Positions 1 to 24,730 of a stretch of 34,033 bases of DNA are shown here, piece after piece. Position numbers and translations under genes: made by a program. Origin of the DNA: a virus (lineage: Duplodnaviria; Caudoviricetes); IMG/VR virus record IMGVR_UViG_3300039239_000009, positions 1 through 34,033 of that record; one strand, 5' to 3'. Every line of letters starts with the position of its first letter. The first letter of the stretch is position 1. Below the pieces are notes generated by a model. That model searched no databases. It was given only the letters and a program-made list of their open reading frames with translations, and was not told the DNA's origin.

Positions 1-23
1 CCTCATTGATTTATGTGATATCG

Positions 24-41
24 CACTGCTAATGCGAGAAC
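24..41 (+). repeat. Left crossover repeat CACTGCTAATGCGAGAAC
   Basis: Exact reverse complement of 569-586; similarity extends to 28 bp with 3 mismatches. Confidence 0.9.
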
Positions 42-312
42 CATAGGCAGCTTCCAGGGCGATGCGCTTCAGAGGATCCAAGGGCAGATGCAATTGCGAC
101 CCGACGACACAGGAGGCGCTGCCATCCTCAATACGCCCAGCGGCGCGTTCGGGATCGTCATCGCCGCGGGCTCGACGGGCGCGGCGCGCATGGTTTCCAA
201 TGCCGCGCCCCTGACGCAGAACGTCGTCAGCTTTGATGCTGACCGAGTGGCCCGCACGTCTACGGAGACCCGCCCCTCAAGCACGGCAATGCTGCCCCGG
301 CTACACGTGTAG
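25..312 (+). other. Silent alternative tail-fibre tip cassette (about 95 aa, no start of its own)
   Basis: Frame reads TANARTIGSFQGDALQRIQG...VSFDADRVARTSTETRPSSTAMLPRLHV*, homologous to the fibre end TANARTMGSRQADAMQNVTG...VSFDTSRVVRSSTETRASNVALSPRLHV*; in-frame stop codons lie just upstream of the repeat. Confidence 0.88.
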
Positions 313-318
313 CCGGGG
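295..318. repeat. 24-bp perfect palindrome encoding PRLHV* on both strands
   Basis: CCCCGGCTACACGTGTAGCCGGGG is its own reverse complement. Confidence 0.95.
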
Positions 319-2838
319 GCTCAAGGCCACGTTACTGGCGCGGGTTTCCGTCGAGGACCGGACCACCCTGCTCGTATCGAACGAAACCGCGTCGCCGTTT
401 GTAATTCCCGCGTCGTGGGCCAGGGGGGCAGAGTTTGTACCTTCCGACTTGCCATGGATCACAAAGGCGCCGGACGCGCCGATGAGCGCGCCAAAGGCCG
501 AGATCGAAGAGCGTGCCTGGATTCGGCCGGTGACGTTCTGCATAGCATCCGCCTGCCGGCTACCCATTGTTCTCGCATTAGCAGTGTCAACATCGGTCCC
601 GGTAAATCGGACAAACATATTCCGCAAGTCCGGCAGCCGAATTTGGGTTCCGAGGTCTGCGTATTGCAGGGTTCCAGCCGCCCAGGCAGCCGACGCCACC
701 AACAAACCGTTCTCCTGCGCGTAGGCGACCAGTCGCGGCTGTGCGGTCTTGAGCACAGTTTGACCAATCGCGTCGATCTGGTACGGCAAGGGGTTGACGG
801 TGTGCCCGAATTCGACTGCACCGCACTGCGGCGACCGGTAACCGGTGAAGTAAGCACTGGTGGCCCAGACCCAGATCTCCTGCCGTTCGGTCACAAAGAC
901 CGGGCCGACGTTGGTCGTCGGCAAGCTGGCCAGGGCCACCACGGGGATACGAGAATCCAGCGCCGCCTGCAGGCCGCTCACCCGAGCAATGTCCGAACGA
1001 GCGAATGCCAGATTGCTCACCGGCACCACCAGGGATACCGTCTCGAATGCCGTGACGGGCTCTACCTTCCACCCGACTCCCCAGGCAGCAACGGTGGCGC
1101 CCGCGGTGTTGTACTTGGCCAGGACTTCGGACACGCTGACGGTAGGGTATGACCACGACCGATTGGTGTCGCCCAGCCAAATGCACAGGTTTCCGCCCGC
1201 GTCCGATCCGAAGCGGACCGGAAGATCGGAGACCGGGCTTCCCGCCACCAGGGTCACTGCGCAGCGCGTCCATGCCTTGGTGGTTTGCACGTAGCCGTGG
1301 ATCAACACCGATACCGGAAGTTGATCCGCCGCGTACTCGAACACATCAACTCGCATGCGGATCATGGTGTTCACGCCAACTGCGGCCGGGGGCAACGTGA
1401 TTTTCATCGCGCCCACGACGGTAGCTGTATGGGTCGAGAACCCGCCACCGTCTGGCAGAACAATCTGCGCCGTCTGCCCCGACGTCGCATTGCTGCCGTA
1501 TTGGCTACCGACCGTTGCGCCCGCCCCTAATACGATAGGGCCACTAACGTTGCCGCCGGCCTTCGGCAACGCTTGGATATCATCTAACACCTCTGCCGGC
1601 GTACGGGGCACCAATGCACCCGCCCCGGCCCCCGCCAGGTACGAACCTGCCGCCACAGTAGCCACGCCGGTACCGCCGCGCGCCACAGGCAAGGTTCCGG
1701 CATTCGCCTTGGACACGTCCAATGCCGTTACGTTAAGGGCCACGTTTCCGGAGCCATCAAAACTCACGCCGCCGGCCGTCGCCCCACCTGTGACGGAGAA
1801 CAAGCGCGTCGTGGCCAGCTTCGTCGCGGTAGCCGCATTTCCCAGCGCGACCTCGCCGGCGGCAGACACGCGGCCTTTCGCGTCCACGGTAAAGGTGGGC
1901 ACCGCGTTGGCGTTGCCGTAGCTGCCCGCGGTGACGCCGCTTGCGGCCAACGTCAAGCCCACCGACAGGTTCGCCGAGCCATCGAACGAGCCGGAGCCGG
2001 TCGCATCGCCCGTGGCCGCAATGGTGCGCGCCGTCGCCAGCTTGGTCGCCGTAGCCGCGTTACCCACGGCGACGGATCCCGCGGCCGTCAGCCGGCCCTT
2101 GGCGTCAACAGTGAACGTCGGCAGCGCATTCGCGTTGCCATAGGTGCCAGCAGTTACGCCACTGGCGGCAAGGGCCAGCGCCACGGACGCATTGGCCGAG
2201 CCGTCGAACGAGGTCGACCCGGTTGCATCGCCGGTGGCCGAGATCGTCCTGGCGGTGGCCAGTTTGGTGGCGGTCGCGGCGTTGCCGACCGCTACCGTAC
2301 CAGCAGCGGTGAGACGCCCCTTTTCGTCCACCGTGAACGTGGGCAAAGCATTGGCGCTTCCGTAAGAGCCCGCCGTGACTCCACTCGCGGCCAAGGCCAG
2401 AGCTATCGAGGCATTCGCAGATCCGTCGAACGTAGCCGAGCCCGTCGCGTCGCCGGTGGTTGCGATCGTCCTGGCCGTCGCGAGCTTCGTAGCAGCCCCC
2501 GCCGTCAGCGATGTGGCGGTCCCCGACAGCCGCGCCACCGGCACCGTGCCCGACTTCAGATTGGTGGCATTCAGGTTTTGCTGCGCAAAGCTCAGCGCAT
2601 CAGCGCTTGCAGCCGTCAGTGGCCGGCCCGTCACCGCGGCCAGGCCCTCAAGTTGCTGATACAGCCACGCCAGGCGTTCGTCCGTGGCCTGCTGGACCTT
2701 GTTGAACTGCTCAACCGATGGCGGCACGGATCCGATGTACGCCCAGCCGGTTTTGTACTGCAGATCGGTTATGCCTTCGGTCAAGCCGTTTTGCGCCCAG
2801 GTGACCTTGAACAGGTCAAAGAAGGTGGGATCAGCCAT
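301..2838 (-). CDS. Tail fibre protein (845 aa) with internal repeats, collar-like domain and switchable tip
   Basis: Follows the baseplate genes; rich in G/A/T residues; IRLPDLRNMFVR collar-like motif; true start MADPTFF at 2838, right after the upstream stop. Confidence 0.92.
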   Translation of the reverse strand: MADPTFFDLFKVTWAQNGLTEGITDLQYKTGWAYIGSVPPSVEQFNKVQQATDERLAWLYQQLEGLAAVTGRPLTAASADALSFAQQNLNATNLKSGTVPVARLSGTATSLTAGAATKLATARTIATTGDATGSATFDGSANASIALALAASGVTAGSYGSANALPTFTVDEKGRLTAAGTVAVGNAATATKLATARTISATGDATGSTSFDGSANASVALALAASGVTAGTYGNANALPTFTVDAKGRLTAAGSVAVGNAATATKLATARTIAATGDATGSGSFDGSANLSVGLTLAASGVTAGSYGNANAVPTFTVDAKGRVSAAGEVALGNAATATKLATTRLFSVTGGATAGGVSFDGSGNVALNVTALDVSKANAGTLPVARGGTGVATVAAGSYLAGAGAGALVPRTPAEVLDDIQALPKAGGNVSGPIVLGAGATVGSQYGSNATSGQTAQIVLPDGGGFSTHTATVVGAMKITLPPAAVGVNTMIRMRVDVFEYAADQLPVSVLIHGYVQTTKAWTRCAVTLVAGSPVSDLPVRFGSDAGGNLCIWLGDTNRSWSYPTVSVSEVLAKYNTAGATVAAWGVGWKVEPVTAFETVSLVVPVSNLAFARSDIARVSGLQAALDSRIPVVALASLPTTNVGPVFVTERQEIWVWATSAYFTGYRSPQCGAVEFGHTVNPLPYQIDAIGQTVLKTAQPRLVAYAQENGLLVASAAWAAGTLQYADLGTQIRLPDLRNMFVRFTGTDVDTANARTMGSRQADAMQNVTGRIQARSSISAFGALIGASGAFVIHGKSEGTNSAPLAHDAGITNGDAVSFDTSRVVRSSTETRASNVALSPRLHV
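569..586 (-). repeat. Right crossover repeat inside the tail-fibre gene (encodes TANART)
   Basis: GTTCTCGCATTAGCAGTG on the plus strand, the inverted copy of 24-41. Confidence 0.9.
1720..2492 (-). repeat. About 3.5 tandem 222-bp (74-aa) repeats in the fibre shaft
   Basis: ATKLATARTI..GDATGS..FDGSAN..LAASGVTAG.YG.ANA.PTFTVD.KGR unit; CC(G/A)TCGAACG recurs at 1979, 2201 and 2423. Confidence 0.92.
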
Positions 2839-22168: not shown

Positions 22169-22375
22169 ATGAACGACCAAAGCAGAAACCGCAGGGCGTA
22201 CCGCGCGATCAGGCGCTTGGAGCGCGCACTCAACAGGCACGCACTTCACCCCGGACGCGGCACCAGTCAGAGCGTGCAGGCCCTCAAAGCCAACTTCGAA
22301 AAGATCAAAGCGCGCGCACGCGAAGATGGTCTCGACGAGTTCGAGTGCGCCTGGCACCTCGCCCTCAACGCTTAG
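22169..22375 (+). CDS. Small basic hypothetical protein (68 aa), counter-oriented moron-like gene
   Basis: Fills the gap between two minus-strand genes; AAGGGA RBS-like sequence; upstream promoter-like sequence. Confidence 0.6.
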   Translation: MNDQSRNRRAYRAIRRLERALNRHALHPGRGTSQSVQALKANFEKIKARAREDGLDEFECAWHLALNA

Positions 22376-23019
22376 GCCGCCTTTAGGCAGCACCCACACG
22401 CTCGGGCAATGTCCAGCCGCGGCACAGCCGGTGCGGCGCTAGCAGCCGCCACCAGGCGCTGCACATCGGCCGATGGCCCGTACCGAGCCACCACGCCCAC
22501 GAACTCCTCGACGTCATGCCCGACAATCCGCAGCTTCGGGCGGCCGAGCGTATCGAACGCCGGCGCGCCGTAAGCGTCGGTCGCCTGCCCTATGTGATAC
22601 AGCTCGTGCTCGACCAGAGCGCAGAAGTCCGCGTCGCTGCAGGTGTCGCAGTAGTCCGCCGAAAGAGTGATCAAGAAGGCCGGCACTCGGCCGAACCACT
22701 CGATCATCTGCTGTTCTTGGCGTGCCTTCTGCCAGCCACCCGCGCGGAACATGACCTGTTCGGCCTGACCCAGCACCGTACGGCCCGCCTTCTGGAAGCC
22801 CGTCGACGCCCACGCGAACGCCAGATCCGCCTCGGCCAGGTGCACGTGGTCCGTGTTGTGGATTGATCCGCTACCCGCCACGATCGAGCCCAGCGCCCAG
22901 GCGAGAAGCTCGGGCGCCGGCCGCAGTTGCAGGACGCCCGACTGGCCTGTACGTTCCAGCCATTCGGCCGGGGGCCGCGGCCGTCCCTCGCCCTCCGCTC
23001 GTCCTCGCAACCTAGCCAT
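22372..23019 (-). CDS. Putative phage metallopeptidase
   Basis: LVEHELYHIG (HExxH) plus HDVEEF motif; start MARLRG at 23019. Confidence 0.85.
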   Translation of the reverse strand: MARLRGRAEGEGRPRPPAEWLERTGQSGVLQLRPAPELLAWALGSIVAGSGSIHNTDHVHLAEADLAFAWASTGFQKAGRTVLGQAEQVMFRAGGWQKARQEQQMIEWFGRVPAFLITLSADYCDTCSDADFCALVEHELYHIGQATDAYGAPAFDTLGRPKLRIVGHDVEEFVGVVARYGPSADVQRLVAAASAAPAVPRLDIARACGCCLKAA

Positions 23020-23021
23020 GT

Positions 23022-23642
23022 TCACACCTTGAAGTTTGCCAACTTGGCAGCGCTGAAGGCTGGTTCCCAGGTGGCCAATCCCTCGTCCTGGGCTTGGCCG
23101 ACGATCGGCCCGCCTTGCGCCAGCTGCGCCAGCACCAGCGAGAACAAGCGCAGCCCCATTGGAGCCAGGTCCCGGCGCCATAGGTCTGCCGCGGAATCGT
23201 CCGGGCGGATATGGCACCAGGCCTGCGCCAGGATTGGCCCGGTGTCGGCGCCGTCGTCCATCCGATACACCGTGCCACCGGTGACCGGCTCGCGCATGTG
23301 CACTGCCCATCGGACAGCGTCGCGCCCGCGGTGCCGCGGCAGGAGCGACGGGTGGTAGCCCAGCGCCCCGTGCCGCGCCCGGGCCCGCGCGCCGGCGTCG
23401 ATGAAGCAATGGGCATGCGCCGCCAGCAGCACGTCGCAGCCCTCCGGGACATCCACCGCGCTCAGCCGGCCGCGCGTAGCGCACGCGGGCACGCCGTGCT
23501 GCTGGGCAGCAGCGTACAGCCGGTCGTAATCATTGCCTTCCGCCGGCGGCGTGGCCACGGCCACCACCTGGTGGCCTTCGGCAAGGCACTGGCGCAGCAG
23601 CGCCGCGCCCAGCCACTTCTGGCCGATGATCATGATGCGCAT
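23022..23642 (-). CDS. Formyltransferase-family protein (Fmt/PurN catalytic domain only, 206 aa)
   Basis: GYHPSLLPRHRG, TGGTVYRMDDGADTGPI motifs; GGAG RBS before MRIMIIG. Confidence 0.9.
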   Translation of the reverse strand: MRIMIIGQKWLGAALLRQCLAEGHQVVAVATPPAEGNDYDRLYAAAQQHGVPACATRGRLSAVDVPEGCDVLLAAHAHCFIDAGARARARHGALGYHPSLLPRHRGRDAVRWAVHMREPVTGGTVYRMDDGADTGPILAQAWCHIRPDDSAADLWRRDLAPMGLRLFSLVLAQLAQGGPIVGQAQDEGLATWEPAFSAAKLANFKV

Positions 23643-24730
23643 GTCGGCTCCCCCATGTATCGGAAGCCCTGCACGGCGCGGAAATGCCCGCCGTAACTGG
23701 TCAGCACTGCCCCGGCGGTAGGCTTTCGCAGTTTCCCGCTTGGCGTGCCGCAGAGGGGCGCCGAGACCTGCGTCCACCGCTTGTCGCGGCGCAGCGCGGC
23801 GGCCAGGCCCGGATGGCTGGTATGGAACAGGGTCCGAAGTGGCAGGCCATATCGGTTGTTGCCGGCCAGCCAAGCAGCGCACACGGCATTCAGAAAGCGC
23901 ATGCCCACGCCGGCACCCTGCCATTCTGGCATCACAACCAACCGGCAGGCACGCGCCTCGACCAGGCCCGGCCTGGTGCTGACCGCCATATGCGCCACCG
24001 GTTCACCGTCGATCCAGCCCACATAGTTCGTGGCGGCGATCATCTTGGGCATCTTCAGATAGTGATGCGGCTCAAAATGCGGCCACCAGCGCCAGTCGGT
24101 TTGCTCGATGTCCAGATCCAGCCGCGGCCGGCGTCGAACCGACCCCCGATCAAATTGACCCGTGGCGGTGTCGAACACCCAATCCGGCTGTAGCCAGTCC
24201 AGCACGTCGTAGTGGCAGGACAGCAGCACCACCTGGCCACCAGTCCGGCGCCACGCCTTGGCGAACGCCCCGGCGCCGACCTTGGCAATCTGCCGATCCA
24301 CGACGGAACTGAATTCGTCCACCACCGCGATCGGCGGCGCCTCGACCACCAGGCGCGCCAGGTTCGCGCGGAACTGCTCGCCGTTGGACAGCACGCCATA
24401 CGGCCGCAACCAGGACGGCACGCTGCCCAGGCCCACGGCCGACAATGCGGCGGTCACGTCATCGAATGCGCCGGCCGGCGCGATCGCGTCGATGATGGGG
24501 CGATCCGATGGCCAGGCCGGCGCGTACAGCGGCGCGATTGCACGCCCGATGCTGGTCTTGCCAGATCCGGACGGCCCCACAATCACCCCTACTCGCCATT
24601 CGCCGTCGTCGATGGGCAGATCCGCGTCCAGGTCGAACGCAGCTCCGCTATCCACGTTGAACAGCGATTTCACCCTGGCCGCGCGATAGCTTTCGGCGTC
24701 GGCACAGCGGTGCTGAATGGATACTTTCAT
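23630..24730 (-). CDS. ABC-type ATPase fused to a GNAT acetyltransferase-like domain
   Basis: GPSGSGKT Walker A, LSNGEQ signature, VVDEF Walker B, SCH H-loop; C-terminal RLVVMPEWQGAGVG acyl-CoA-binding motif; no transmembrane partner. Confidence 0.9.
   Translation of the reverse strand: MKVSIQHRCADAESYRAARVKSLFNVDSGAAFDLDADLPIDDGEWRVGVIVGPSGSGKTSIGRAIAPLYAPAWPSDRPIIDAIAPAGAFDDVTAALSAVGLGSVPSWLRPYGVLSNGEQFRANLARLVVEAPPIAVVDEFSSVVDRQIAKVGAGAFAKAWRRTGGQVVLLSCHYDVLDWLQPDWVFDTATGQFDRGSVRRRPRLDLDIEQTDWRWWPHFEPHHYLKMPKMIAATNYVGWIDGEPVAHMAVSTRPGLVEARACRLVVMPEWQGAGVGMRFLNAVCAAWLAGNNRYGLPLRTLFHTSHPGLAAALRRDKRWTQVSAPLCGTPSGKLRKPTAGAVLTSYGGHFRAVQGFRYMGEPTCAS

Follow-up and report, generated by a model that had tools for sequence, protein, structure and literature searches.

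A probable multi-cassette tail-fibre shufflon beside an armless tyrosine recombinase in a contractile-tailed prophage

Fibre gene, tip cassettes and left flank

The stretch of DNA analysed here in full (the window) is a single virus record of 34,033 nt (IMG/VR IMGVR_UViG_3300039239_000009) with head, contractile-tail and early genes, of which 48 open reading frames (ORFs) were scanned. Its left end holds a tail-fibre gene that finishes in an exchangeable C-terminal tip (tip A) and, facing it, a silent second tip (tip B); this fibre locus, together with the tips, chaperone and recombinase genes that sibling contigs place beyond position 1, is the subject of the present study (Table 1). The fibre was assigned as a tail collar fibre through PHROG 523 and Atlas clusters in which PF07484 occurs in 16-19% of members, while neither the window fibre nor its tips gave a significant Pfam match. 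The collar-type motif PDLRNMFVRFTGTDVD at the end of the constant part is near-invariant across 23 fibres.

An initial annotation of the sequence had described an inverted 18-bp repeat inside the fibre gene just after a collar-like motif, unrelated outer flanks, and a start-less homologous tip that shares the codon phase (TANART) and the ends of the resident one. Closer analysis agreed on each of these points. The 18-mer is exact at 24-41 (+) and 569-586 (-), with no third copy in the window at up to three mismatches; the chance expectation is a mean of 0.02 matches over 100 shuffles, and 0/100 shuffles gave two. Comparison of the sequences outside the two sites confirmed that they are unrelated. 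Tips A and B both open with TANART at the site in the same codon phase, as indicated for tip B by the frame test and by a fusion protein described below, and both end in PRLHV; the conserved ends quoted in the annotation are present. Only the figure of 563 bp, given as the distance between the repeats, required correction, as it is the length of the whole segment 24-586. Tips A and B share 46% identity in the multiple alignment and 50% in pairwise global alignment, the tips being 28-50% identical to one another and 86-95 aa long. The final 2 of the 18 bp are common to A and B only, the core of all five tips described below being 16 bp.

Table 1. Features of the fibre locus in the window and, where marked L020, in the viral contig that extends it to the left
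Feature	Position	Strand	Description	Evidence
Left site outer arm and spacer before the fibre-chaperone gene	1..23	-		Identical to L020:4978-5000
Left recombination site	24..41	+	16-bp core 24-39	Flank joined to tips C, D or A in sibling contigs
Tip cassette B	25..312	+	Silent, 95 aa, no start of its own	Frame test; seen fused in P0150
Perfect 24-bp palindrome	295..318	.	3' ends of A and B overlap there by 12 nt, at the stop codons	
Tip cassette A	301..585	-	94 aa, currently fused to the fibre	Translation, alignment
Tail-fibre gene	301..2838	-	845 aa: 751-aa constant part plus tip A	PHROG tail fibre matches
Fibre-side recombination site	569..586	-	16-bp core 571-586 plus 2 bp common to A and B	
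End of constant part	586..633	-	Collar-type motif PDLRNMFVRFTGTDVD directly before the site	Translation; PHROG 523
Tyrosine recombinase (PF00589, E 1.8e-13)	L020:3348..4457		Reading frame intact	Pfam match
Fibre-assembly chaperone (PF16778)	L020:4972..4358			Pfam match

The viral contig L020 matches window 1-39 exactly and extends leftwards into chaperone, recombinase and lysis genes, the recombinase sitting between the other two within the prophage; to the right of the shared stretch it carries three further tips, D, C and E. These parts are physically linked in Logan contigs of runs X1 and X2, both possible sources of the window DNA, where one 13,410-nt record consists of window 1-39, approximately 800 extra nt and window 24-1500. 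The order in the X1 record is recombinase, chaperone, C..E, linker, D, a 1-nt spacer, B..A and fibre; it differs from L020 by 3 substitutions over 2,456 nt and from window 24-1500 by none among those listed, and its extra block of 798 nt is exactly the D-C-E span of L020. The full element, found in X1, X2, X3 and X4, comprises five tips (A-E) and five sites with a common 16-bp core, with one chaperone gene outside the array and then the recombinase, both left of window position 1 in the sibling contigs. A search left of position 1 for a recombinase and further repeat copies had been advised in the initial annotation, and sibling contigs place a tyrosine recombinase there; its description of chaperone-free cassettes and asymmetric sites was likewise borne out by the array layout and the site alignment. 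No serine invertase was detected among the 48 window ORFs or the left-flank ORFs of L020 (a host-encoded one being possible), and no promoter-like site was found near the recombinase gene. For the identical fibre protein and for the identical recombinase, the longest contig on record measures 754,786 nt, which fits a prophage, and the host is likely an Achromobacter, since the named relatives of both proteins are mostly from that genus.

Alternative junctions at the sites

Evidence of shuffling was sought in the assembled contigs, not the raw reads, of five of the 21 listed runs (X1, X2, X3 and X6 compared with the window; X1, X3, X4 and X6 with L020); such data show presence only, and X3 and X4 belong to the same study. 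Alternative junctions at the sites were observed in three of the five runs, from two studies (X3, X4 and X6). In X3, the fibre was joined to A (depth 7), C (7.3) and D (5), a sum of 19.3 against a fibre depth of 19.6, and the left flank was joined to A (15.5) and C (9.8), while in X4 tip C was present at the left flank (14) and also at the fibre (9.4). In X6, from the other study, the junctions were fibre-A (6.5), fibre-B (2), spacer-B (4.5) and spacer-A (5), and tip D occurred at the left flank as well as at the spacer, which makes D appear doubled. Unitigs of X3 and X6 break at the fibre-side site with several partners. The fibre-C, fibre-D, left-C, left-D, spacer-A, spacer-B and spacer-D junctions were read from loose ends or exact matches, and left-A in X3 and fibre-B in X6 from mismatch counts against known tip starts.

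The flipped allele was also recovered as a protein: P0150, from four contigs, is the 751-aa constant part of the window with 0 differences followed by the exact tip B. Additionally, P0148 and P0151, whose bodies are of one common length and show 21 differences each from that of the window, end in two other tips. The alternative junctions within runs and the assembly of P0150 support the earlier proposal of an invertible tip switch, which was nevertheless too simple in calling it two-state, as near-identical copies hold five tips in X1, X2, X3 and X4, and X6 apparently holds six cassette copies. A putative excised A/B circle in X3 (a joint that 'goes back 563') was rejected: the piece fits the start of D, and its mismatch count is unreliable (secondary pieces show 0 even for an A-versus-D match). 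Neither a 30-nt junction pattern nor a degenerate site pattern gave a match when metagenomes were scanned, a result that is uninformative about absence.

These junctions could instead reflect a mixture of strains or prophage copies, each frozen in its own arrangement, with flipping on an evolutionary timescale only. X6 is a metagenome and the comparison was of contigs, which leaves some room for this explanation; it is nonetheless improbable, as none of the runs compared has an alternative letter listed across window 1-1500, the junction depths partition the flank depth and three fibre junctions coexist in X3. Furthermore, the recombinase reading frame is intact, and several Achromobacter genome assemblies break exactly at the site.

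The left-flank-to-B junction of the window was encountered in none of the runs compared, among the matches listed, which suggests that the two-tip form arose either by deletion between direct sites or through an assembly shortcut across the repeated sites, the true prophage being five-tip. The latter would bear on the number of cassettes and not on the switch itself, and its chances lie just short of even. The window record ends 23 bp outside the site, and near-identical records hold 798 extra nt there; set against this, a 16-bp repeat is shorter than the usual assembly words, and cassette number varies among relatives (2 in L005-L007, 5 in L001 and 13 in L079), X6 apparently differing from X1 by one additional D. 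Layouts do differ by whole cassettes lying between direct sites (a joint that 'skips 271'; C, D and E absent from the window), with assembly effects being possible.

The recombinase and its family of tip arrays

The recombinase is 34% identical to R64 Rci over Rci residues 10-293 of 384 (E 1.5e-39) and keeps the catalytic R, K, HxxR and Y, while it has no N-terminal arm region, unlike its integrase relatives. Between 28 and 56 residues follow the catalytic Tyr in members of its clade, and 69 in L020, compared with 104-113 in Rci; in the window lineage, the 3' ends of the recombinase and chaperone genes have 100 nt in common (L020:4358-4457), a tail-to-tail overlap that lengthens the recombinase C-terminus to those 69 aa. 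Two trees were constructed (the first of 38 rows without L034, the second of 26 rows with it), and in both the fibre-associated recombinases formed a clade at 100/99-100 whose sister, at 100/99, is a group of arm-bearing integrases. A joint clade with two plasmid Rci proteins was rejected by the approximately unbiased (AU) test (p=0.0003), which was applied to 26 rows that include only 2 Rci and were picked after the first tree had been seen. The sister integrases (L093, L095 and L034, Rci/HP1-related enzymes of islands or prophages) are 41-45% identical to the recombinase and differ from it in that they possess an arm-like region at the N-terminus, continue for only 13 aa beyond the Tyr and are without tip cassettes. 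The dusA-associated integrases (PMC4482086) are more distant, BcepIL02 and H66 being only 24-25% identical and on a separate branch, and the recombinase gene lies between chaperone and lysis genes and not at a dusA attachment site.

Judged by its sequence, the enzyme would work like Rci or Rin (the recombinase of a phage shufflon, see below) and yet is not an Rci, because the Rci C-terminal domain is missing and the joint clade was rejected. The assignment to the Rci type in the initial annotation thus survives as homology, while the missing domain and the separate grouping speak against it. As a tentative proposal, which we would place slightly below an even chance, the clade may be a shufflon invertase that arose independently of Rci, from an arm-bearing integrase by loss of the arm and gain of a short C-terminal helix, with replacement of the second catalytic His by Asn in the Achromobacter branch. 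Such an enzyme would act on asymmetric sites even though the domain required by Rci is missing, would invert, delete and duplicate cassettes (giving an Alcaligenaceae library of 2-13 tips) and would have been recruited within its clade to other fibre families. With R64 Rci as the query, 107 cultured-phage records were matched, in no case across 80% of the query length, and the 'shufflon-specific recombinase' records that were checked (L036, plus L034, L035, L037 and L038) had no tips nearby.

Relatives of the locus were collected from both ends of the system. Of 17 loci found by the fibre C-terminus (L001-L017), seven (L001, L002, L003, L005, L006, L007 and L009) hold 2-5 tips and a recombinase (truncated in L006), and in five (L004, L008 and L014-L016) the contig stops at or just past the site, the recombinase, chaperone and terminal site of L014-L016 lying near the end of another contig. 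The remaining loci (L010-L013 and L017) have a fibre gene without the site and no recombinase at the locus, and in the genome of L017 none was found at E<=1e-20. Searching in the other direction, the recombinase was detected in 34/301 genomes of the A. kerstersii family sample, at 41 places, of which 35 were fetched (6 near contig ends were omitted, 3 of them having been seen as L031-L033). With a profile built from 21 tips, at least two tips (up to 13; 9 in L074) were found in 24 of these 35 regions, one in 1 and none in 10. Among the ten without tips, three regions end within approximately 2 kb, four hold arm-bearing integrases outside the clade and three hold clade members, two of which (L089 and L090) have inverted repeats at a different fibre-like gene.

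Alignment of 78 sites from 19 loci revealed the block TGCAAATG to be 97-100% invariant per position, including synonymous positions. The core and inner arm are conserved, and the outer arm is variable save for a weak TG signal (78% and 96%). In the window lineage the first A of the core is replaced by T, and the enzyme of this lineage shares 68% identity with that of the main Achromobacter group. In 18/31 pairs of converging tips, the ends with the stop codons overlap by 4-14 nt, often in near-perfect palindromes, an arrangement that locks two tips into one segment. Among viral sequences, the 16-mer gave 10 matches, of which only L020 represents this system, and a looser site pattern gave 58, of which only the L020 contig has tips.

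The possibility was also considered that the switch is real but is flipped by a host enzyme (XerC/D-like or another invertase) or by RecA-independent recombination of the repeats, the neighbouring recombinase being an integrase or a passenger. The nearest outgroup of the enzyme does consist of arm-bearing integrases, its second His is replaced by Asn, and nine beta-proteobacterial prophage enzymes of the Rci family are stated to flank no shufflon in a 2012 survey (PMC3414803). This explanation nonetheless appears very improbable, given that the recombinase lacks an arm region and is encoded between the chaperone and lysis genes, that it co-occurs with tip arrays in 24/35 regions while fibre loci without the site lack it, and that the variant core of the window lineage goes with a divergent enzyme.

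Several individual loci of the family deserve mention. In L079 (1927-5248, G056), most of the thirteen tips form tail-to-tail pairs, the back-to-back sites being separated by 15 nt, and one of the thirteen looks frameshifted. The recombinase is truncated in L006 (9309-9656) and frameshifted near its start in L005 (9320-10371), and the two-tip arrays of these two loci may be frozen. In L089 (3520-7052) and L090 (242-3487), recombinases of the same clade neighbour a chaperone-like ORF and a fibre-like gene of another kind, which has inverted repeats of 14 bp, including the family core, in L089 and of 49 bp in L090; it is possible that these enzymes were recruited to other fibre families.

Proposed switch and comparison with known systems

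In our view the locus is, with high probability, a multi-cassette tail-fibre shufflon of a contractile-tailed prophage, in which tips are swapped on the 751-aa body at the 16-bp site, likely by the adjoining armless tyrosine recombinase, an exchange that would alter the receptor bound. The switch appears to be active. Under the proposed mechanism, the recombinase would bind the conserved inner arm and pair two inversely oriented sites, and strand exchange would take place in or near the invariant CTGC(A/T)AATG block, as with Rci at sfx. The single chaperone gene outside the array would serve all tips, and occasional recombination between sites in the same direction would delete or duplicate cassettes, which could produce the two-tip form of the window. 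The variable middle of each tip would represent the receptor-binding end, such that tips would differ in host range and tip exchange would presumably switch it.

It is conceivable that the tips are swapped without being receptor-binding determinants, their variation being neutral or structural, and the failure of structure prediction together with the lack of a solved relative by sequence leaves room for that view. We consider it improbable, as the tips form the extreme C-terminus after the collar, are 28-50% identical and are kept in frame in numbers of up to 13, and as fibre-tip inversion is reported to alter host range in carotovoricin Er (cited in PMC13195805) and in Mu/P1 (summarised in PMC6109161).

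A number of observations weigh against the shufflon interpretation or parts of it. No recombinase gene is present in the window record, its linkage to the fibre resting on sibling contigs, and X1 and X2 each display a single arrangement. The left-flank-to-B junction of the window is absent in the 4 runs compared with it, among the matches listed, and the depth sum in X3 leaves no room for a hidden one. As the run data are contigs only, coexisting strains with frozen arrangements retain a small probability. In the Achromobacter branch, Asn takes the place of the second catalytic His, a position occupied by His or Trp in the rest of the clade, and the missing Rci C-terminal domain is the one reported to be necessary for asymmetric sites. 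Finally, AlphaFold2 modelling of the collar and tip A as a monomer gave a predicted local distance difference test score (pLDDT) of 45, too poor to use, and no relative of the tip was found by sequence in the PDB.

The closest precedent for the shufflon proposed here, not named in the initial annotation, is the phage Rin shufflon, with which the principle was already published in 2018. In that system, described from Bifidobacterium prophages as the first phage case, a tyrosine invertase swaps the 95-100 aa ends of a receptor-binding protein (RBP) (PMC6109161), and Rin-type shufflons have been extended to Eggerthella lenta prophages (PMC8778435). According to these descriptions, both systems have a constant N-terminus and several start-less C-termini of approximately 95 aa, each preceded by a short asymmetric repeat, an armless tyrosine recombinase flanking the array, five alleles and several orientations in sequencing data. 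Rin differs in its actinobacterial hosts, its TP901-1-like tips and an 11-bp rix site that is dissimilar by inspection (PMC6109161), whereas the present locus has a contractile-tail collar fibre, Betaproteobacteria as hosts, a 16-bp core, of which 9-10 bp are invariant across the family, and a chaperone gene that separates the array from the enzyme gene; the Rin enzyme was compared by its description only.

The R64/IncI pilV shufflon resembles the fibre array in its combination of two-cassette tail-to-tail segments with a single-cassette segment (PMC11852207; R64 record L030), in sites that are conserved on the cassette side and variable outside, and in a homologous armless enzyme. It differs in its target, which is PilV of a conjugative pilus and not a phage tail fibre, and, relative to Rci, the recombinase here carries two insertions and groups elsewhere. 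In the best ungapped overlay, the site had 9 and 8 matches to sfx, which is not significant (shuffle p 0.10 and 0.38). Rci has been described as an armless member of the IntP2 subgroup (PMC8138268), its extra C-terminal domain is reported in all 14 Rci homologues tested (PMC11852207, which defines sfx anatomy), and this domain is reported as essential for asymmetric sites (PMC4482086).

Comparison was extended to the classical fibre switches, in which, as here, inversion swaps the C-terminus of the fibre. The segments of Gin (Mu) and Cin (P1) carry chaperones of their own, and Ein, the enzyme of carotovoricin Er, is a serine invertase. Min (p15B) is multi-cassette, and Min, Gin and Cin differ from the present enzyme as serine invertases (PMC6109161). 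Tail fibres are reported to be enriched among inversion targets (PMC9881135), the main text of that paper mentioning neither Achromobacter nor Bordetella, while its supplements may list such loci. A 2025 screen of Rci homologues (PMC11852207) is worded without 'phage', 'tail', 'Achromobacter' or 'Bordetella' in its text, and its P. parvum reporter file labels a site in a tail-fibre coding sequence, so that the screen implicitly includes an Rci homologue at a fibre gene. A literature search, with subscription papers outside its cover, returned no paper on a shufflon of the Alcaligenaceae lineage. The principle of such a fibre switch had been described before in other phages.

Should host range be set by the tips, a receptor switch would be built into the temperate phages of Achromobacter, Bordetella and their relatives, which would affect any prophage host range read from a single assembly. 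The shufflon would also explain contig breaks at fibre genes, and homologous tips of 70-100 aa on one scaffold constitute a natural library in which tip-to-receptor mapping is testable. The recombinase offers a natural test of the model in which the Rci C-terminal domain allows inversion at asymmetric sites and blocks deletion, and is a candidate orthogonal shuffling tool. Additionally, it qualifies the no-shufflon statement of the 2012 survey (PMC3414803), whose nine prophages may or may not include this clade.

Three further observations were made in passing. The fibre shaft (1768-2433) contains three tandem repeats of 222 nt (74 aa) that are 65-72% alike, and related fibres appear to hold fewer copies. 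A fragment of this recombinase, P0154, comes from a 733-nt contig assigned to an assembly of the fungus Rhizopus and is probably bacterial contamination. Between the terminase region and the early genes of the window (22372-24730, -), an ATPase-plus-GNAT gene (PHROG 11143), a PF00551 formyltransferase-like gene and a PF18894 metallopeptidase gene lie in a row, and possibly represent a DNA- or surface-modifying moron.

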